DNA of 16,193 nucleotides from Vulcanimicrobiota bacterium (GTDB lineage Bacteria > Vulcanimicrobiota > Vulcanimicrobiia > Vulcanimicrobiales > Vulcanimicrobiaceae), in NCBI GenBank assembly GCA_003133025.1, contig PKZK01000063.1, forward strand, positions 1-16,193, given 5' to 3'. The translations under genes and the position numbers were made by a program. Of this stretch, positions 2,266-14,652 are shown in pieces. Numbering within the stretch: position 1 is the first letter of the stretch; every line of letters starts with the position of its first letter. The notes under the pieces were generated by a model that saw only the letters and a program-made list of their open reading frames with translations, had not been told where the DNA came from and searched no databases.

Positions 2266-2294
2266 AGTGTATGCCCGCGACGCGAGCCGGGCAA
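2266..2294 (-). promoter_or_regulatory. sigma70-type promoter of the ctaA-ctaB-MFS operon
   Basis: Minus strand TTGCCC (2294-2289) - 17 nt - TACACT (2271-2266), 10 nt before the ctaA GTG. Confidence 0.65.
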
Positions 2295-2303
2295 CGACAA
2301 GCG

Positions 2304-7263: not shown

Positions 7264-8238
7264 ATGATCTCCCAAGCCGAAGCGGCGACGTTCGCCGACG
7301 TCGTCGAAGCCGCCGCGCGCTTACGCGGCGTGGCGCATCGCACGCCGGTCGTCACCTCGCGCACGCTCGACGCGCGCACGGGAGCGAGCGTCTTTCTGAA
7401 GTGTGAAAACCTGCAGCGCATGGGCGCGTTCAAGTTCCGCGGCGCCTATAACCGGATCGCGCAACTCGACGCCGGCGCGCGGGCCCGCGGCGTGGTGGCC
7501 TTTTCGAGCGGCAACCACGCGCAGGGCGTAGCGCTCGCGGCGCACCTGTTGGGCGCGCCCGCCATCATCGTCATGCCCTTCGACGCGCCGGCAGCCAAGG
7601 TCGCGGCGACGCGCGAATACGGCGCCGAAGTGGTCTTCTACGAGCGCGCCGCGATGAATCGCGCGGAACTCGCCGGGACGATCGCGCGCGAACGCGGCGC
7701 CACGCTCGTGCCGCCGTACGACGATCCGAACGTGATCGCGGGTCAAGGCACGGTCGCGCTCGAGTTGCTCGAAGACGTTCCGGATCTCGACGTCCTCTTG
7801 GTCTGCGTCGGCGGGGGCGGACTCCTCGCGGGCAGCGCGCTCGCGGCGACCGCGCTGCGCCCCGGCATTGCGATCTACGGCGTGGAGCCCGAAGCTGGCG
7901 ACGATTTCGCGCGCTCCTTCGCGAGCGGCGAGCGCATCGAGATCCCGGTGCCCGATACGATTGCGGACGGTCAGCAGACGACGTCGCCCGGCGTATTGAC
8001 CTTTCCGATCGTCAAGCGCCTCTGCGCCGGTTTCCTAACCGTCTCCGACGACGATCTACGCGCGGCGATGCGCTTCGCCTTCGAACGCTTGAAGCTCGTC
8101 GTCGAGCCCAGCGGTGCGTGCGCGCTTTCGGCGCTGCTGGCCGATAAGCTCGACGTTCGCGGCAAACGCGTAGGCGTGCTGATCAGCGGCGGAAACGTCG
8201 ATCCCAGCCGCTACTCAGAAATCCTGAACGCGCGATAG
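7264..8238 (+). CDS. PLP-dependent threonine/serine dehydratase family enzyme (serine racemase / threo-3-hydroxyaspartate ammonia-lyase type, no ACT domain)
   Basis: LKCENLQRMGAFKFRGA (PLP lysine), SSGNHAQG, GQGT, VGGGGL, VEPSGA, SGGN. Confidence 0.93.
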   Translation: MISQAEAATFADVVEAAARLRGVAHRTPVVTSRTLDARTGASVFLKCENLQRMGAFKFRGAYNRIAQLDAGARARGVVAFSSGNHAQGVALAAHLLGAPAIIVMPFDAPAAKVAATREYGAEVVFYERAAMNRAELAGTIARERGATLVPPYDDPNVIAGQGTVALELLEDVPDLDVLLVCVGGGGLLAGSALAATALRPGIAIYGVEPEAGDDFARSFASGERIEIPVPDTIADGQQTTSPGVLTFPIVKRLCAGFLTVSDDDLRAAMRFAFERLKLVVEPSGACALSALLADKLDVRGKRVGVLISGGNVDPSRYSEILNAR

Positions 8239-8368
8239 GTCCGTTCGGCTCGTTGGGCAGGAAGGGAACGTCTGGCCCGGGAGGCGCCTCTTCCGGCCAC
8301 GGCTGATCCGGTGGTTCGCCGGGATTGGTCGGTGGAATCGGATTCGGCACGTAGGCGTGGAGCGACAT
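8183..8368 (-). CDS. Proline-rich microprotein (61 aa)
   Basis: MSLHAYVPNPIPPTNPGEPPDQPWPEEAPPGPDVPFLPNEPNGPIARSGF...; 16 Pro in the first 44 residues. ATG lies 9 nt after GGGTAT. The tail overlaps the dehydratase 3' end. Confidence 0.55.
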   Translation of the reverse strand: MSLHAYVPNPIPPTNPGEPPDQPWPEEAPPGPDVPFLPNEPNGPIARSGFLSSGWDRRFRR

Positions 8369-8377
8369 GCCGGGGTG

Positions 8378-8403
8378 ATACCCTGCCGAACCGCGACGCA
8401 ATC
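8378..8403 (-). promoter_or_regulatory. SigB/SigF-like promoter of the Pro-rich ORF
   Basis: Minus strand GATT (8403-8400) - 16 nt - GGGTAT (8383-8378) - 9 nt - ATG. Confidence 0.55.
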
Positions 8404-8479
8404 TCCGCTTGGCCATAAACTAGTGCGTTCGGCTCGAATCGGCCGGCGCTCGAGCGTGATTGGCTCAGCGAATGAACGG

Positions 8480-8836
8480 CTACGTTGACCGGCGCAAGGC
8501 TGCGGGCTTGAACGCGAGTGCGTCGTCGACCGAATCGAAAACGCCCATCTGGTGGGCCAGGCCCGTAATGTCGAAGATACGCCGGGTCTGCGTGGCGGGC
8601 GGCACCACCACGGCGAACGCCTCTCCGAGTTCGTTGGAGAGTCGCACCAGCACGCGCAGGCCGCTGCTATCGATGTATGGGCACTCGGCCAGCGAGACGA
8701 TGATGAAGTCCGCGCCGTCGGCGGCTTGATCGAGGCGTTCCCCCAGTGCGTCGGCCGATGCAATGTCGATCTCCCCGCAGATATCGACGATGCGGGCCCC
8801 GTCGTGAAGGCTGAGCTGGGTCAAGGTCTGATGCAT
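8480..8836 (-). CDS. STAS-domain anti-sigma factor antagonist (RsbV/SpoIIAA-like)
   Basis: GEIDIASA...IVSLAECPYIDSSGLRVLV...RRIFDITGL...FDSVDDAL; DSSGL carries the conserved phospho-acceptor serine. RBS GAGGAG upstream. Confidence 0.93.
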   Translation of the reverse strand: MHQTLTQLSLHDGARIVDICGEIDIASADALGERLDQAADGADFIIVSLAECPYIDSSGLRVLVRLSNELGEAFAVVVPPATQTRRIFDITGLAHQMGVFDSVDDALAFKPAALRRST

Positions 8837-8878
8837 CGGTTGGCGGCTCCTCTGCCTGGTTTGTCGCTGACCGCGCCT

Positions 8879-8903
8879 ATACCCAAATTCTCAGCCGGAA
8901 ATC
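8879..8903 (-). promoter_or_regulatory. SigB/SigF-like promoter of the STAS gene
   Basis: Minus strand GATT (8903-8900) - 15 nt - GGGTAT (8884-8879). Confidence 0.62.
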
Positions 8904-8904
8904 C

Positions 8905-8963
8905 TCGCCGGGTCGACCGGCTACAACGGGAGTAGAGGGCCCGTCAGGCCGCCCACCCAGCGA
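8905..8963 (-). other. Long imperfect RNA hairpin (candidate sRNA or leader structure)
   Basis: Minus strand UCGCUGGGU pairs with ACCCGGCGA, CGGC with GCCG, and UGACGGG with CCCGUUG, around the loop CCCUCUACU. Several pairs are G-U on the minus strand and A-C mismatches on the plus strand. Confidence 0.4.
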
Positions 8964-9033
8964 TATGCCGCCCGCCTCTTGCCCACGGTCGCGCTAGCCG
9001 CGCAAACGCGCTCGCCCGGCGAGCGGCGTCGCC

Positions 9034-9058
9034 GTTTCGCGCCGCACTCGCGGGGTAA
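9034..9058 (+). promoter_or_regulatory. SigB/SigF-like promoter of the 9092-10118 operon
   Basis: GTTT (9034-9037) - 15 nt - GGGTAA (9053-9058), then GGAGG and ATG 9092. Confidence 0.7.
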
Positions 9059-9091
9059 GCATCGGCACGTGAGTTTCGGAGGGACGAAGGT

Positions 9092-9445
9092 ATGATGGAT
9101 ACGACGGATGTGATCGAGCGCCGCACGAGCGAAGTGGGCGAACACGTGGGGGCCGCAGCGCAGGGCCTGCACCAATTCGCTGATGAGTTGCGCGACAGCG
9201 CCGGCGGCAAGAATCTGTTTTCGGCGGCGGCCGACGAGGTCGCACGCCGCGGCGACGGTCTCGCCGATTACTTGCGCAATTGCACGACCTCGCGGCTGAT
9301 AAGAGATGTGGAGCGCGTCGCGCGACGCGCGCCGCTCAGCGTGGCGGCAGCCGGTTTCGTTGCCGGCTTTGCGGCTTCACGCGCACTGAAGATGCGCGAG
9401 TTGCGCGACGGCTTCGGCGGCGCGCTCGATGGAGAGGCACGATGA
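9092..9445 (+). CDS. Tail-anchored general-stress-type protein (YqjD/ElaB-like architecture)
   Basis: Helical acidic N-terminus, then LADYLR...LIRDVERVARRAPLSVAAAGFVAGFAASRALK, i.e. a C-terminal membrane helix after an RRxP motif. Confidence 0.72.
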   Translation: MMDTTDVIERRTSEVGEHVGAAAQGLHQFADELRDSAGGKNLFSAAADEVARRGDGLADYLRNCTTSRLIRDVERVARRAPLSVAAAGFVAGFAASRALKMRELRDGFGGALDGEAR

Positions 9446-9603
9446 AGAAGATGTGGGAACGCGATCCGTTCAACTTCGCGCTCGGCGCCACGACCGTCGG
9501 GTTTCTGTTGGGCTTGATCGTTCCGGTGACGCGCCTGGAGACCGAGAAAATCCCCGCCGCGGTCGAGGCCGTGCGTTCGAGCCTGCAAGAGAGCACGGCG
9601 TGA
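9442..9603 (+). CDS. Small membrane protein (53 aa)
   Basis: MKKMWERDPFNFALGATTVGFLLGLIVPVTRLETEKIPAAVEAVRSSLQESTA. RBS GGAGAGG; ATGA overlap with the upstream stop and GTGA overlap with the downstream start. Confidence 0.75.
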   Translation: MKKMWERDPFNFALGATTVGFLLGLIVPVTRLETEKIPAAVEAVRSSLQESTA

Positions 9604-10118
9604 GCCGCGCCGCGGGCGCCCTCGCGCTCGGGCTCGCGCTCTGCGCGCTGCCGGCGGCGGGCCGCGCGCAGAGCTCCAACGATGCCACGTTCGTCCGCCA
9701 GGCCGCCGCCGCGAACGAGCAGGCGATTCGCGACGCACGTTTGCAGTTGCGAGCGGGCAGCGGCGAATCGGTGCGCACGTACGCTCAGTCGTTGATCGAC
9801 GACGATTCGCTGGCGCTCGTGATGTTGCGGGCGGCCGCGCGCGACGCCCACCTGGTCGTGCCAGTCGACGCGAGTTTGCCGCCCTCGCCCGTGGTCGCTC
9901 GCGGCGCCGCGCCCGTGGTCAATGCGGTCGCGCCCGATTACTTCCGGGTCGTGATCGCGGATCAACGCCAAATGCTCGCGCTCTTACAGGCTGAGGCCTC
10001 GGGAACGGGTTCGGCCGCGCTGCGAACGTGGGCCGCCGACGAGCTTCCGGTGGTGACGCGACAACTGGCGCAAGCCGAGGTGCAACTCGCCGAAGCGACG
10101 CAGTTCACGCACCCGTAG
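9600..10118 (+). CDS. Secreted DUF4142-like (ferritin-like four-helix) protein
   Basis: GTG 9600 coupled to the previous stop. Signal peptide ending AGRA-Q, then NDATFVRQAAAAN, SESVRTYAQSLIDD, LRTWAADELPVV. Confidence 0.72.
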   Translation: MSRAAGALALGLALCALPAAGRAQSSNDATFVRQAAAANEQAIRDARLQLRAGSGESVRTYAQSLIDDDSLALVMLRAAARDAHLVVPVDASLPPSPVVARGAAPVVNAVAPDYFRVVIADQRQMLALLQAEASGTGSAALRTWAADELPVVTRQLAQAEVQLAEATQFTHP

Positions 10119-10133
10119 GCGCGCGGCGCGCGT

Positions 10134-10922
10134 TTAGATTGCGCGCATGACCATGATCGAGGCGTCGTCGCGCAGGGTACCCGCGGCGTGCTCCTCGACG
10201 CGTGCGAAGAGCACGTCGGCCAGTGCCTGGGCGCCGAGCGGAACGTGCTCGAGCAAACACGCCTTGAGGTGCGCCAGCGTAAACTGTTCGCCGCGCGGGT
10301 TGCGCGCTTCGGCGAAGCCGTCGGTGTACAGCACCACGAAGTCTCCCGGCCCCAGCGGCGCGCGTTGCTCTTCGAAGATCCAGGCGCGTTGGATGCCGAG
10401 CACCAGCCCCGACGATGGCAATTCCTCGACCTCGTCACGTTCGCGGCGGTAGATCAGCGGCGGATCGTGGCCGGCGTTGACCACCGAGAACATGCGGCCT
10501 TCATCCGTGATGGAGCAGAGGAGCATCGAGAAATACTCGTCGGTCAGGAGCGCGTCGGCCATGACCGCGTTTGCCGTCGAGACGACCTCGACCAGCGTGT
10601 GCCCGGCTGCGATCAAGGCGCGCACGACGAACTTCAGCGTCAGCGAGCGCAGCGCGGCGGGCAGCGAACGGCCCGAGGCGTCGCCCATGGCGAACACCGG
10701 CGCGTCGCCGTTGCGCGCGACGACGTCGAGATAGTCGCCGCCGGCGATGCGCGCGGGTGCCGCGCGGATGCCGACGTCGAGACCGGCATAGCGGACATCG
10801 CGCACCTCGAGCAACGTGCGCTGAATGTCGCGCGCCACGTTGTCGAAGTCGTTGAACAAATCGCGGCCGTCGAGCGCGGCAAGCGCTCGACCCAGCGAGA
10901 AGATGTCGACCGGAGGACCCAC
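10134..10922 (-). CDS. Stand-alone PP2C/SpoIIE-family (RsbU-like) protein phosphatase
   Basis: ARDIQRTLL, GGDYLD, MGDASG, VNAGHDPP, GLVLGI, LYTDGFAEARN, DDASI; the metal-binding Asp residues are present. Only about 25 residues precede the catalytic region. Confidence 0.92.
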   Translation of the reverse strand: MGPPVDIFSLGRALAALDGRDLFNDFDNVARDIQRTLLEVRDVRYAGLDVGIRAAPARIAGGDYLDVVARNGDAPVFAMGDASGRSLPAALRSLTLKFVVRALIAAGHTLVEVVSTANAVMADALLTDEYFSMLLCSITDEGRMFSVVNAGHDPPLIYRRERDEVEELPSSGLVLGIQRAWIFEEQRAPLGPGDFVVLYTDGFAEARNPRGEQFTLAHLKACLLEHVPLGAQALADVLFARVEEHAAGTLRDDASIMVMRAI

Positions 10923-10969
10923 GCTGCCTTCCTACCCAGCACTCGTCCGAGCCACCTGCGCGAATTCCC

Positions 10970-10995
10970 GTTTTGGACCGGCTCGATGAGGGCAA
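10970..10995 (+). promoter_or_regulatory. SigB/SigF-like promoter of the Cys/His microprotein
   Basis: GTTT (10970-10973) - 16 nt - GGGCAA (10990-10995) - 10 nt - GTG 11006. Confidence 0.5.
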
Positions 10996-11005
10996 CAATC
11001 GGGAC

Positions 11006-11212
11006 GTGTCCATCGAGCGCCTCATCGTGTGTCCCTGCGAACACGATATCGACCAACACGATCACCGCGGTTGCTTGATCCGCACCTCCGCCGGCCGGTG
11101 CGGCTGCACGCGCCACCGCGACGCGGTGCTCGAAACGCTGCTCAGTTTGGAGCGCGAGGAGATCCGCCGGCAGTGGCTTCCGACGGAACGGCCTGAGCGC
11201 CGTTCGGGCTAG
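11006..11212 (+). CDS. Small Cys/His-rich putative zinc-binding protein (68 aa)
   Basis: MSIERLIVCPCEHDIDQHDHRGCLIRTSAGRCGCTRHRDAVLETLLSLEREEIRRQW...; motif C-x-C-x-H-x4-H-x4-C-x8-C-x-C followed by an amphipathic helix. Start moved from the track's TTG 10973 because the promoter motif overlaps it. Confidence 0.68.
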   Translation: MSIERLIVCPCEHDIDQHDHRGCLIRTSAGRCGCTRHRDAVLETLLSLEREEIRRQWLPTERPERRSG

Positions 11213-13244
11213 GCGCCGCCCGGCGCCGCGGCCGCCGCAATGGCGGGAGGACCGCGCGAGCGTGGCTGCCCCCGCGCGCGCGCCGAACGACGCTGAAATC
11301 CTCGGCGATGCTCGCCACGATGTAGAGGCCGCGCCCGCTCTCACTCAGTTGACTCGGTAACTGCGGCGTCTGGGAACGGTAGCCGGGCCCGTCGTCGAGC
11401 ACGTGAATCACCGGGTGGGTGCCGGCCCAGACGAGCGAGGCTTCGATTTCGCCGTTGGCGTGACGAATGGCGTTTCCCAACAATTCGCCGAAGACCAACT
11501 GCGCGCCGGCGATCTCGTCGGCTTCGAAGCCCGATTCACGGAGCACGTCGGCCAGCGCGCGCCGCGCCTCGACCGCCTGACGCACGTCTTCTGCGGCAAA
11601 CCGCCAGGTGCGAATCGTGCGTCCTTCGGCCACGGGCTCGCGCACCGCGTTCACGCGTACGGTGAGGATCGCGACGTCGTCGCGGGAGCCGTTGGGCAGT
11701 AAGCGGCGGCGTAAGGCTTTGGCCGGCGAGTCGTTTTCGAACAGCGACGGCTTCGCCAGCTCCGCGCGCAGGCGCGCCTCGCCTTCGAGCACGTCGCGCG
11801 TCGACTCGGTCAGGCCGTCGGTGTAGAGCACGAGCAGCGCGTCGCGCGGCACGACGATGGTCTCCGCGTTGCTGCGCAAGTGTTTCCCGCGCAGCCCGAG
11901 GGGCAGTCCCGAGGTCCACAGTTCCGCGATCGTTCCGTCGGCTTCGCGCAGGAAGGCGGGCGGGTGACCCGCGCTCGCATAGGTCAATTCGCCGGTAAAC
12001 GGATCGAGCACGCCCACGAACGCCGTCACGATCCGGTCCGGGTCGTGCGCGCGCAAGGTGCGGTCGGCGGCATCGAGGATGGCTACCGGATCAGGCGTCG
12101 TCTGGCCGACCGCGCGGATCGATTGGCGCATCAGACCCATCGTGACGGCCGCGCTCAAGCCGCTGCCGCAGACGTCGCCGATGGAAACCAGAATGCGGCC
12201 GCCCAGCAACTGCACGGCGTCGTACCAGTCGCCGCCGACCAGCGCTTCGCTGCGGCCCGCCTCGTACACCGCGTCGAAGAAGACGTCGCTGCGTTCGGGC
12301 AGGGTTTGCGGCAATGCTGCGCGTTGAAACGTTCCGGCCACGCGTTGTTCGTGCGCGTAGGTTTCGGCGTTGTGCAGCGCCAGCGCCAGGCGGCGAGCGA
12401 GTTCGCAGAAGAGCGGCAGGTCCGCGTCGCCGAAACGCTGCGCCGTGTTGCGCCGAAACGCAACCAGCACGCCGGCGTTGCGATAGTCCAAGCGGATCGG
12501 CGCGGTTATCGCGCTGTCGGACTCCACGCCGGCAAAAGCATCCTGCGCCACCGGCGAGAGATTGCCGAGCCAATCGGGGCCGAGTTGCGTCTCGACGTAT
12601 GGAAAGCCCGAGCGAGCCGAACGCAACGCGGGCGCGAGCGGATCGAGCACCGTGTTCTGCAGCAATCGAGCCGCGCGCGATGCGTCGTCGCGGGCCCGGC
12701 TCGTCGCGACGATGCGCGTCTCGCCGTCGGCATCGGTTGCCGCGATGAAGGCCCAGTCCGCGCCCGCCGGTACGACGGCGTCGAGCAGCGCCGCATACGC
12801 GTCGGAGGCATCCAGCGACGCGGCCAAGCGCGTCCCGGCGTCGATGAGCAGGCGTAGCGCCGCTTCACTCTGCGCGCGCTCGTCGATGTCGGTCTCGCTG
12901 CCCAGCCATCCGGTCAGTACGCCGTCTTCGAAGATCGGCAGCACCTTGGCGAAGAACGTCCGGTAGCGGCCCGTGCGCGAGTCGAGCAATCGCGTTTCGT
13001 ACGAAAACTCGGCGTGCGAACTGAGCGCGCGGCGCCACTGTTCGCGCACGTACGCACGGTCTTCGGGATGTACCGCGTTCTGGATCCAACGCCAGCCGTA
13101 ACTCGAGGCCGGCTCGAGGCCGGTCTCGCGCTCCCAGCGGTCGTTGGAAGAGAAGCGCTCGCCAAATGCGTCGCAACGCCAAATGATGTGCGGCAACGAC
13201 TCGAGCAAAGGAGACTCCATCGATGAGCGGTGCTTCGCGTCCAA
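11142..13244 (-). CDS. PAS-GAF-PP2C(SpoIIE)-HATPase (RsbW-like) multidomain sensor phosphatase/kinase
   Basis: PAS (LESLPHIIW, VHPEDR, GSETDID); GAF (LAASLD...SAITAPI...FGDADLPLFCELARRLALALHNA); PP2C (FQRAALP, VGGDWYD, IGDVCGSG, SAGHPP, YTDGLTE, DDVA); RsbW-like kinase (ELLGNAIRHA, DDGPG, ESGRGLYIV). Start TTG 13244 or ATG 13220. Confidence 0.93.
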   Translation of the reverse strand: MDAKHRSSMESPLLESLPHIIWRCDAFGERFSSNDRWERETGLEPASSYGWRWIQNAVHPEDRAYVREQWRRALSSHAEFSYETRLLDSRTGRYRTFFAKVLPIFEDGVLTGWLGSETDIDERAQSEAALRLLIDAGTRLAASLDASDAYAALLDAVVPAGADWAFIAATDADGETRIVATSRARDDASRAARLLQNTVLDPLAPALRSARSGFPYVETQLGPDWLGNLSPVAQDAFAGVESDSAITAPIRLDYRNAGVLVAFRRNTAQRFGDADLPLFCELARRLALALHNAETYAHEQRVAGTFQRAALPQTLPERSDVFFDAVYEAGRSEALVGGDWYDAVQLLGGRILVSIGDVCGSGLSAAVTMGLMRQSIRAVGQTTPDPVAILDAADRTLRAHDPDRIVTAFVGVLDPFTGELTYASAGHPPAFLREADGTIAELWTSGLPLGLRGKHLRSNAETIVVPRDALLVLYTDGLTESTRDVLEGEARLRAELAKPSLFENDSPAKALRRRLLPNGSRDDVAILTVRVNAVREPVAEGRTIRTWRFAAEDVRQAVEARRALADVLRESGFEADEIAGAQLVFGELLGNAIRHANGEIEASLVWAGTHPVIHVLDDGPGYRSQTPQLPSQLSESGRGLYIVASIAEDFSVVRRARGGSHARAVLPPLRRPRRRAAPSPNGAQAVPSEATAGGSPRAPN

Positions 13245-13300
13245 ACGGCTACGTCATAGACGCCGAGGGATGGCTCGCTCGCACGGAGTCCGGCGCGCCC

Positions 13301-13326
13301 GTTAGCCCGGAGGCGGTCTCGGGAAC
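13301..13326 (+). promoter_or_regulatory. SigB/SigF-like promoter of the 39-aa acidic ORF
   Basis: GTTA (13301-13304) - 16 nt - GGGAAC (13321-13326) - 9 nt - ATG 13336. Confidence 0.55.
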
Positions 13327-13335
13327 GTGTCGGGC

Positions 13336-13455
13336 ATGATCGAAGAACGTGCTACCGACGACCATGCCTGGGAGAACGAACTGACCGAGGAAGACATGCC
13401 TTCGCCCGAACAGCGCGAGGACGAGGCTCACGAGATCACGCTCGATCCGCAGTAG
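13336..13455 (+). CDS. Acidic microprotein (39 aa), absent from the ORF track
   Basis: MIEERATDDHAWENELTEEDMPSPEQREDEAHEITLDPQ*; 15 of 39 residues are D/E; codons fit the genome's style; promoter motif immediately upstream. Confidence 0.6.
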   Translation: MIEERATDDHAWENELTEEDMPSPEQREDEAHEITLDPQ

Positions 13456-13473
13456 TCCGCGACGGGGTCGGGC

Positions 13474-13647
13474 CTAGAAGTGCTCGTCCTCGGTGGGATG
13501 CTCTTCGTCTTTGTGGTCGTCGGCGTTGGGCTCGTACGAGTTGTCGCCGTAGACGGTTTCCGGCGTCTGGCTGATGCCGGCTACGTCGGCCTCGCGCCGG
13601 GTGAGGGTCGGTTCGTCGTCGGGGCTGCGTTCGATCTCGTCACTCAT
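13474..13647 (-). CDS. Acidic microprotein (57 aa), absent from the ORF track
   Basis: MSDEIERSPDDEPTLTRREADVAGISQTPETVYGDNSYEPNADDHKDEEHPTEDEHF*; 19 of 57 residues are D/E; third codon positions mostly G/C; TATGGT lies 6 nt before the ATG. Confidence 0.65.
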   Translation of the reverse strand: MSDEIERSPDDEPTLTRREADVAGISQTPETVYGDNSYEPNADDHKDEEHPTEDEHF

Positions 13648-13697
13648 ACCGTCACCATACCGCAGAAGGCGCCCGGCGTCACTTGCAGCGTCGTGGA

Positions 13698-14274: not shown

Positions 14275-14652
14275 TTGACGATCTTCCTCGCCGTCCTGCG
14301 AACGCTCGTGGGACTGGTCTTCGTGGTGTCGGGAGCCGCCAAGCTCTTCCAGCATCAACTTTTCGCGGCAAAGTTCGCCGGTTGGGGTGTGCCCGCGCCG
14401 GATGTTTCGGTGCTCGCGGTCGGTGCGTTGGAAATCGTTTGCGGCGGGCTGTTCGCGCTCGGCGCGCTGACGCGCCCGGTGGGCATGCTGTTGGCGACGA
14501 TCATGGTGGCGGCCGCATATTTTGCAGGCCGCGCGGAACCCGTGCCGCACCTGATCGTGACCCCAATCCTTTTCGTTTTATGCGTGTTCTTTGCGTGGCG
14601 TAGCGGCCGGGTGCCCGGCCGCACACCGCTGCGGCGCCCGGGAGTGCAATGA
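14275..14652 (+). CDS. DoxX family membrane protein
   Basis: LRTLVGLVFVVSGAAKL...FAGWGVPAP...GALEIVCGGLFALGALTRP. Start uncertain: TTG 14275 has GGAG 8 nt upstream; TTG 14251 is also in frame. Confidence 0.88.
   Translation: MTIFLAVLRTLVGLVFVVSGAAKLFQHQLFAAKFAGWGVPAPDVSVLAVGALEIVCGGLFALGALTRPVGMLLATIMVAAAYFAGRAEPVPHLIVTPILFVLCVFFAWRSGRVPGRTPLRRPGVQ

Follow-up and report, generated by a model that had tools for sequence, protein, structure and literature searches.

The 16,193-nucleotide (nt) stretch of DNA analysed here (contig PKZK01000063.1; hereafter the window) comes from a soil or peat bacterium of the Vulcanimicrobiota, a phylum also known as Eremiobacterota (WPS-2), and its source genome is 80% complete. 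Between positions 8183 and 13647 it carries a cluster in which three partner-switching genes, for a STAS anti-sigma antagonist, a stand-alone PP2C phosphatase and a PAS-GAF-PP2C-HATPase (RsbW-type) fusion, lie among small open reading frames (ORFs), several of them preceded by a two-box motif of the SigB/SigF type (Table 1). We consider it very probable that this cluster is the densest patch of a genome-wide gene set marked by GTTT/GTGT-N15-17-GGG(T/A)A(T/C/A), likely the promoter of an unlinked SigB/SigF-type sigma factor, and that it is governed by the partner-switching mechanism proposed below. An independent assembly (run X6) covers the window with two contigs that overlap each other; identity is about 99.6% and no difference is listed within the sites, so the stretch is not an assembly artefact.

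Table 1. Genes and predicted promoter sites of the cluster (aa, amino acids; SD, Shine-Dalgarno sequence; +1, transcription start)
Feature	Position	Strand	Description
61-aa Pro-rich ORF	8183..8368	-	56-nt overlap with the 3' end of the threonine dehydratase gene; predicted leaderless
STAS anti-sigma antagonist, 118 aa	8480..8836	-	PF01740 E 9e-17; TIGR00377 over cut-off; D-S-S-G phospho-acceptor motif
117-aa protein	9092..9445	+	C-terminal hydrophobic helix; homologues in 29/100 relatives
53-aa membrane-helix ORF	9442..9603	+	Coupled to 9092
DUF4142 protein	9600..10118	+	PF13628 E 5.5e-13; signal-peptide-like N-terminus; third gene of 9092 operon
Stand-alone SpoIIE-type PP2C, 262 aa	10134..10922	-	PF07228 E 3e-43; four metal-binding Asp motifs intact
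68-aa Cys/His microprotein	11006..11212	+	Overlaps fusion gene 3' end by 71 nt; C-terminal helix
PAS-GAF-PP2C-HATPase (RsbW-type) fusion	11142..13244	-	Pfam; about 690-700 aa; start TTG 13244, ATG 13220 or TTG 13208
39-aa acidic microprotein	13336..13455	+	38% Asp+Glu; motif LTEE..P.P..Re......lDP
57-aa acidic microprotein	13474..13647	-	33% Asp+Glu; motif VYGD.s..PNadD
SigB-type site GATT-N16-GGGTAT	8378-8403	-	9.4 bits; 9 nt before ATG 8368; predicted +1 8368
SigB-type site GATT-N15-GGGTAT	8879-8903	-	11.4 bits; 42 nt before STAS start; leadered, SD present
SigB-type site GTTT-N15-GGGTAA	9034-9058	+	15.0 bits; before 9092; leadered, SD present
Weak site GGTG-N15-GGGTAG	10932-10956	-	5.7 bits; 9 nt before PP2C GTG 10922
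SigB-type site GTTT-N16-GGGCAA	10970-10995	+	12.4 bits; 10 nt before GTG 11006
SigB-type site GTTA-N16-GGGAAC	13301-13326	+	13.9 bits; 9 nt before ATG 13336
Weak seventh site GTGA-N16-CGGTAT	13657-13682	-	6.2 bits; 9 nt before ATG 13647
Predicted +1 positions	8368, 8869, 9068, 11005, 13336, 13647

Pfam confirmed the domains that a first-pass annotation of this DNA had assigned to the three partner-switching genes. The solved chains nearest to the STAS protein are anti-sigma antagonists, including RsfB, and at the level of sequence its phospho-acceptor Ser, the catalytic Asp of the PP2C protein, and both the phosphatase and the N/G1/G2 kinase motifs of the fusion are in place. An orthologue of the PP2C protein (51% identity) occurs in the same gene order in a related genome (G049), with no site before it, and proteins with the architecture of the fusion were matched at E<=1e-90 in 89 of 150 genomes of the family. 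The whole genome encodes 17 PP2C, 7 STAS and 11 RsbW-type domains, 8 of the latter fused to PP2C. Small genes are referred to below by their start position.

The same annotation had described the motif upstream of six genes, and all six sites lie before the genes it named, with the boxes and spacers it gave. A pattern wide enough for all of them matches 18 places in the window; the pattern alone therefore proves little, and an independent test is required. Moreover, gene-blind spacing counts were nearly flat with only weak peaks, plain pattern counts over intergenic DNA also gave weak peaks only, and a pattern scan of the genome contigs including PP2C returned one distant match. The 18 matches and the flat gene-blind counts fit the alternative that the sites are chance matches in DNA of 67% guanine-cytosine (GC) content, or that the G-rich box serves ribosome binding rather than acting as a promoter, as does the PP2C site, which is ambiguous because it overlaps an SD-like AGGAAGG.

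A two-box matrix was trained on upstream DNA of relatives only, with the -10 box and one G as seed, and converged on GT(T/G)T-N16(15-17)-GGG(T/A)A(T/C/A). The first matrix included rows from unpublished genomes and was rebuilt without them (the cleaned matrix); such genomes also contribute to some of the homologue and sigma factor tallies given below and to two rows of the 11006 alignment. Scored with a relatives-only matrix, five of the six sites exceed background, whereas the PP2C site does not stand out. The fusion gene has no SigB-type site (5.4 bits), and 6 bits at the start distance of the weak site before 13647 are reached by 45 of 1920 genes. Of the 8 promoter-bearing genes in the cluster, 5 score at least 9 bits, compared with 142 among the 1920 genes in the rest of the genome (binomial p 1e-4), and at 11 bits the counts are 4 of 8 and 47 of 1920 (p 2e-5), both p-values being optimistic because the region was chosen on the motif. 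The remark that housekeeping genes lack the motif held for 14 of the 15 other genes of the window, the exception being ctaA (GTTG-N15-GGGCAT, 2271-2295, minus strand, 9.7 bits); that site is missing in all five relatives compared and was read as a chance match. Finally, no Rfam family, sigma-70 consensus promoter or terminator excess was found in the window.

The comparison with shuffled controls that had been suggested as a check came out in favour of the motif. With the first matrix, 73 sites of 10 bits were found in 1928 upstream regions of the genome against 44 in shuffles, and the excess was most evident at 13 bits (19 against 3.5), from which it follows that roughly 30 or more real promoters should exist elsewhere. 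Sites outside the cluster precede genes for a long catalase, a PfpI protein, a thiamine pyrophosphate (TPP) enzyme, YihY/BrkB, a GlsB-type transglycosylase-associated protein, hemerythrin and a glycosyltransferase; sites also precede an operon that includes an lmo0937-family gene and, on another contig (C45), a stand-alone RsbW-type gene.

The motif is real and lineage-wide. When homologues were scored with a leave-family-out matrix, counting as sites only those of 10 bits or more, a site preceded the sigB operon in 48 of 73 relatives and the homologues of 9092 in 16 of 25, 11006 in 13 of 27, 13647 in 11 of 26 and 13336 in 8 of 24; the counts were 4 of 17 for the fusion and 1 of 4 for PP2C. 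Control genes gave 0/44 (rarA), 1/35 (lptA), 1/59 (iscS), 2/68 (alaS), 1/73 (rsbW), 3/79 (sigB), 4/67 (ytxH) and, for two others, 1/21 and 2/19. The motif was retained before homologues although the surrounding DNA had diverged, and in 68 of 73 relatives the motif of the sigB operon lies about 35 nt upstream of a separate SD, which argues against a ribosome-binding signal.

The distance between the box and the start codon is also informative. Outside the contig of the window, 20 of 3201 genes had a site of 10 bits 9-10 nt before the start, against 3.1 expected (first matrix). The cleaned matrix gave 16 of 1920 genes at those two offsets and 0-5 elsewhere, and a matrix made only from sigB-operon leaders gave 25 genes at 9-10 nt and 0-6 at any other offset. 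In held-out DNA of relatives (448 kb) an ATG followed at this distance for 10 of 116 sites (2.1 expected). In addition, TANNNT peaks 6-7 nt before starts (39 and 25, against about 11), 3 nt closer than the SigB-type sites, an offset that the SigB structure predicts. In the SigB open complex the box lies at -15 to -10 (PMC11156646), and since nine bases past the box correspond to +1 in that structure, genes with such sites are predicted to be leaderless. The matrix and these position tests together describe a two-box promoter (-35/-15) with a spacer of 15-17 nt.

Several points weigh against our reading. Matrices with the wrong spacer still place 9 and 10 genes at the 9-10 nt offset, so that part of the peak is due to the -10 box alone, and this box by itself likewise peaks there (27 genes), as the chance or ribosome-binding alternative would have it; in the held-out DNA one of the two wrong spacers gave 5 of 95 (the other 0 of 72). 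Chance alone would account for about 44 of the 73 genome-wide matches at 10 bits, ordinary genes are among the high scorers, and the regulon genes named above are examples picked by eye from top lists. Among homologues of the STAS gene only 5 of 15 have a site, and two controls, rsbV (13/74) and one unrelated gene (8/52), lie above the others. The promoter region of the sigB operon in this genome lies beyond a contig edge, gene starts come from a simple purpose-written gene caller, and relatives are kin, not independent samples. Nevertheless, the correct spacing doubles the peak, both in the genome and in held-out DNA, and together with the separate SD of the sigB operon, the conservation in otherwise diverged DNA and the offset from TANNNT, this leaves chance or ribosome binding as a highly improbable explanation.

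Thus, many targets of the proposed promoter are predicted to be leaderless mRNAs. In the cluster, sites at the leaderless distance are clear before 8368, 11006 and 13336 and weak before 10922 and 13647, and none of the 15 flanking genes has one (best 2.1 bits). Leaderless transcripts are reported to be common in mycobacteria (PMC6448022). The MarR/PadR genes of the window (14177, 15886) and the genome-wide spacing of TANNNT suggest that leaderless genes of the housekeeping sigma factor are common too. Leaderless upstream mini-ORFs were considered before 9092 and ytxG and were discarded, as they are not conserved in frame in 20 homologues. Contigs from RNA libraries (five runs; depth 2-5) match parts of the cluster; they were not counted as evidence because they were found with the window sequence, are unstranded and possibly contain DNA. 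One of them ends at 13646, adjoining the predicted +1 at 13647, and others span the 13336 promoter. The plus-strand genes 13336 and 11006 each lie between minus-strand genes with no terminator-like site between these (13146-13646; 11006-11212), and antisense read-through, that is, a non-contiguous operon, is possible.

The first-pass annotation had inferred that an unlinked SigB/SigF-like sigma factor, absent from the window, reads these promoters, and such a gene was found. On a contig unlinked to the window (C188), a sigma gene of the SigB/F/G family lies in an operon with a YtxH-like gene, rsbV and rsbW, so that the sigma factor is encoded together with an anti-sigma factor and an antagonist. 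The sigma gene is interrupted by a gap of Ns, its halves scoring 100.9 and 133.1 bits on TIGR02980; since 22 codons are missing compared with five relatives, the break is an assembly gap. The orthologue scores 290 bits against a cut-off of 234, and this cut-off is exceeded by intact orthologues in 38 of 40 relatives, in 35 of 36 when the unpublished genomes are set aside, and in 5 of 5 close relatives. The closest named records are mostly from Vulcanimicrobiota (76-87% identity; 3 of 80 have other genus or order names). The order DUF948-YtxH-rsbV-rsbW-sigB recurs in 80 loci of relatives, the genes being present in 75, 67, 74, 76 and 80 of them, respectively. The best match of the orthologue in the PDB is 8x6g_H, the Staphylococcus aureus SigB open complex, in which S235, Q236, M237, R241, R97, R100 and R110 read bases (PMC11156646). 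All seven are kept in the orthologue of a close relative (G063); of four further contacts one is identical, F86 is replaced by Y, and F79 and R244 are changed. In the genome studied here the positions of R100 and R110 fall within the assembly gap. A 5' hairpin in the leader of the sigB operon was tried as a marker of the transcription start and rejected (median z -1.2, start offsets scattered).

The sigma factor and the motif could be right and the programme developmental, that is, a resting-cell or spore-like SigF/SigG response and not general stress. Indeed, a single family model covers SigB, SigF and SigG, and the orthologue stays below every equivalog cut-off (230 bits against 315 on TIGR02941, the Bacillus SigB equivalog). 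However, its scores on Sigma_B (230) and actinobacterial SigF (254) exceed those on sporulation SigF (194) and SigG (156), its operon includes DUF948 and YtxH genes, and the targets include catalase, PfpI and an lmo0937-family gene, so that we regard a developmental programme as quite unlikely and a general stress response as the better description.

The distribution of kinase motifs suggests how the switch may be built. Judged from sequence, the operon RsbW of this genome has Thr in place of the N-box Asn and lacks the G1 DxG. Among the 11 RsbW-type domains of the genome the Asn is kept in 10 and both motifs in 9, including the fusion of the window. In relatives both motifs are present in 45 of 109 rows of operon RsbW (38 of 103 distinct sequences, 8 unparsed) and in 15 of 16 HATPase domains that are fused or stand alone. 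The phospho-acceptor Ser is invariant in operon RsbV (74/74) and present in 14 of 15 STAS proteins of the window type. As the operon RsbW has lost its kinase motifs, fused HATPases such as that of the window are candidate kinases, and we infer that the fusion may act as a kinase-phosphatase for STAS proteins. Only 1 of the 17 PP2C genes reaches 9 bits, and therefore the phosphatases look like inputs. Feedback of the sigma factor on its own regulators, as proposed at first, is thus borne out for the STAS gene and not for the phosphatases, the PP2C site being weak and the fusion having none.

In the mechanism that we propose, the operon RsbW would hold the sigma factor in unstressed cells, while separate HATPases (the fusion of the window, seven paralogous fusions and the stand-alone protein on C45) would keep the STAS antagonists phosphorylated. 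A signal at the PAS/GAF domains would shift the balance in such fusions from kinase activity towards phosphatase activity; the STAS proteins, now unphosphorylated, would then bind RsbW and free the sigma factor, which would transcribe the cluster, several genes of it as leaderless mRNA. Since the STAS gene of the window is itself a target, it would amplify the response, and the fusion would serve as a constitutive input rather than as feedback.

The cluster had also been described as a self-contained island, and this part of the claim does not stand: the sigma factor, the anti-sigma factor, the main antagonist, 15 PP2C domains, 6 STAS domains and most of the regulon are located elsewhere, the cluster holding 2 of 17 PP2C and 1 of 7 STAS domains. 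It might still be a module of its own, perhaps a mobile one, that depends on another sigma factor, either the extracytoplasmic function (ECF) sigma factor at 14649 or a second, divergent SigB-like protein on contig C73 (14814-15548; 133 bits, below the cut-off). The cluster is indeed the densest in the genome, with 5 sites in 5.5 kb (the next, on contig C89, has 3), a comparison that favours the window since small ORFs are missed elsewhere, and its cargo varies among relatives. However, three of the seven residues that read bases are missing from the C73 protein, and the motif of the cluster also stands before the sigB operon and before genes scattered over many contigs. Moreover, the GC content of the cluster (67.6%) is close to that of the flanks (68.5% and 66.3%), and no tRNA, boundary repeat or integrase was found among the genes of the window, which indicates a variable regulon cluster and not a mobile island. 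In three relatives (G057, G063 and G010) the cluster occupies the same chromosomal place, between threonine dehydratase and a CMD gene, with different cargo (hemerythrin, an lmo0937-family gene, SRPBCC and an ABC transporter). In G049 the order is fusion-11006-PP2C-STAS with other flanks, and subsets of the genes occur in G061, G068, G153, G162, G021, G054, G101 and G103, several with further sites. We therefore give an autonomous module a very small probability and retain the dispersed regulon of the unlinked sigma factor. The C73 sigma gene adjoins genes labelled by eye as lytic-transglycosylase-like and secretion ATPase.

In its mode of action this system resembles the general stress regulons under SigB or SigF in Bacillus, Staphylococcus and mycobacteria, whose promoter consensus is described in PMC9847131 and PMC4694148; it belongs to the same family and is not the Bacillus equivalog. 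With SigB of Bacillus subtilis and S. aureus it shares the order rsbV-rsbW-sigB, the consensus (GTTTAA-N15-GGGTAT), the seven base-reading residues, similar cargo and, in relatives, a site before the sigma operon (PMC9847131, PMC11156646). Unlike them, RsbU_N (PF08673) and RsbRD_N (PF14361), looked for as marks of an RsbU N-domain and of stressosome input, were not found in this 80% complete genome, the -35 box is looser (GTTT, GTGT, GTTA, GCTT), many targets are predicted to be leaderless, and the operon RsbW is without the N and G1 kinase motifs. The SigF system of Mycobacterium smegmatis is similar in its promoter (GGWWT-N16-17-GGGTAY / GTTT-N15-17-GGGTA), in the apparent placing of anti-sigma and kinase roles on separate proteins, RsbW1 being an anti-sigma factor without kinase activity and RsbW2 a kinase, and in regulators that act as boosters under their own sigma factor (PMC7693655). 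In contrast to that system as reported there, rsbV here belongs to the sigma operon, alongside DUF948 and YtxH genes, there are 17 PP2C domains of which 8 are fused to HATPase, and the loss of motifs in operon RsbW is patchy across the class.

For the SigB homologues of Streptomyces coelicolor, mapped -35 variants include GTGT, GTGA, GTTA, GATT and GCTT and mapped -10 variants GGGAAC, GGGCAA and GGGTAG, as here, and the last column of the promoter table, whose bold marks for transcription starts are lost in the text version, lies mostly 8-11 nt past the box (PMC8346170). That species has nine SigB homologues, whereas here one family member exceeds the cut-off in most genomes. OsaC of S. coelicolor and Rv1364c of Mycobacterium tuberculosis resemble the fusion in joining PAS/GAF sensors to PP2C, and Rv1364c also in its C-terminal anti-sigma-type domain; unlike them as described in PMC12143880, the fusion of the window has no STAS domain, and the architecture is expanded here. 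No paper on such a system in Eremiobacterota, WPS-2 or Vulcanimicrobium surfaced in the sigma, anti-sigma, stress, desiccation and sporulation literature, subscription literature being mostly outside the scope of this search.

The logic of the switch is therefore already known, and what is described here is a stress switch of known type from a new lineage, whose predicted targets include three undescribed conserved microproteins. It provides a testable promoter code and a master stress switch for a phylum that is abundant in soil and peat and mostly uncultured. The fixed distance from box to start predicts exact transcription starts and reveals small genes missed by gene callers, and three conserved microprotein families without a Pfam match acquire a regulatory context. 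In addition, the patchy loss of kinase motifs from operon RsbW within one class is a natural series on the separation of anti-sigma and kinase roles.

As first noted, small genes of the cluster carry the motif, and 9092, 11006, 13336 and 13647 are conserved with many homologues; none of the small ORFs matches Pfam or NCBIfam, and in all five that were tested mismatches fall mostly at third codon positions. The weakest-supported is 8368: of 150 family genomes only G057 has a convincing homologue (E 5e-12), at the same place, and the third-position bias of 8368 counts against it. The site of 9092 is divergent from the STAS promoter. In most relatives homologues of 9092 head an operon with a holin-like gene (PF07332), a family not found in this 80% complete genome. 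By BLASTP, 9092 and 9442 are colinear with a single G063 gene of 192 aa, of which 9442 is the C-terminal part, and they are what is left of a three-gene operon that in other relatives includes a PF07332 gene. The DUF4142 gene overlaps 9442 at stop and start and has no site of its own (4.2 bits). Protective cargo is the likely role of the 9092-9442-DUF4142 operon and of the acidic microproteins. At E<=0.05, 13336 has matches in 41 of 150 family genomes (7 unpublished), and homologues of 13647 occur in 28 of 90 (3 unpublished) and among 559 database proteins, the 120 of them that were listed having no Pfam domain. In one ORF (L196/L205, G018, unpublished), a single case among the fetched loci, the 13336 and 13647 families are fused.

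The alignment of 11006 has seven invariant residues (C9, C11, H13, H18, C23, C32 and C34), a pattern that fits 264 of 269 fetched proteins and marks it as a likely metal-binding cargo protein. Homologues are present in 49 of 214 family genomes and in none of 36 in two other families, and 445 clusters match at E<=0.001. The structure is predicted with confidence (predicted local distance difference test, pLDDT, 86); no fold match was obtained (Foldseek E>7; best VIA Z 2.9), and in a protein atlas 11006 matched only unnamed entries and 13647 stayed below 0.9. Judged by their sequences, 11006, 13336 and 13647 define three undescribed conserved microprotein families without a Pfam match, which are predicted targets of the sigma factor.

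It was also considered that 11006 belongs to the switch itself, as a metal- or redox-sensitive component acting on the HATPase or phosphatase in a largely leaderless SigB-type regulon whose kinase role has moved to sensor-PP2C-HATPase fusions. The closest homologues of 11006 have a gene for a PP2C, an RsbW-type or a STAS protein no more than 1.5 kb away at 19 of 27 loci and in 12 of 17 genera (20 of 29 loci with unpublished rows; random windows 4%), compared with 12 of 87 loci for three other families of the cluster. Among 40 new, more distant loci, only 10 adjoin partner-switch genes (flanking windows 8/76), and the motif is present at 15. As the association weakened on replication, a dedicated role of 11006 in the switch is a minority reading, which we consider rather unlikely. 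A cultured member of the phylum has a homologue of 11006. Two genera have one directly preceding rpoB and in the same orientation, in many cases accompanied by a strong site (L246, L247, L250, L254, L259, L356-L359, L362).

Two other loci of the genome deserve mention. Contig C89 carries a second, larger stress cluster (about 11300-24300; L327) with five sites of at least 8.9 bits in 10 kb and genes for a STAS protein, a topoisomerase IB fragment, an SDR, a long catalase, YqcI/YcgG, an ETR1-like-PP2C-HATPase fusion and a TPP enzyme. On contig C61 (518-1811; L331), divergent genes for cytochrome c oxidase subunits III and II have sites at the leaderless distance of 12.0 and 9.1 bits, which suggests that this oxidase is stress-controlled.

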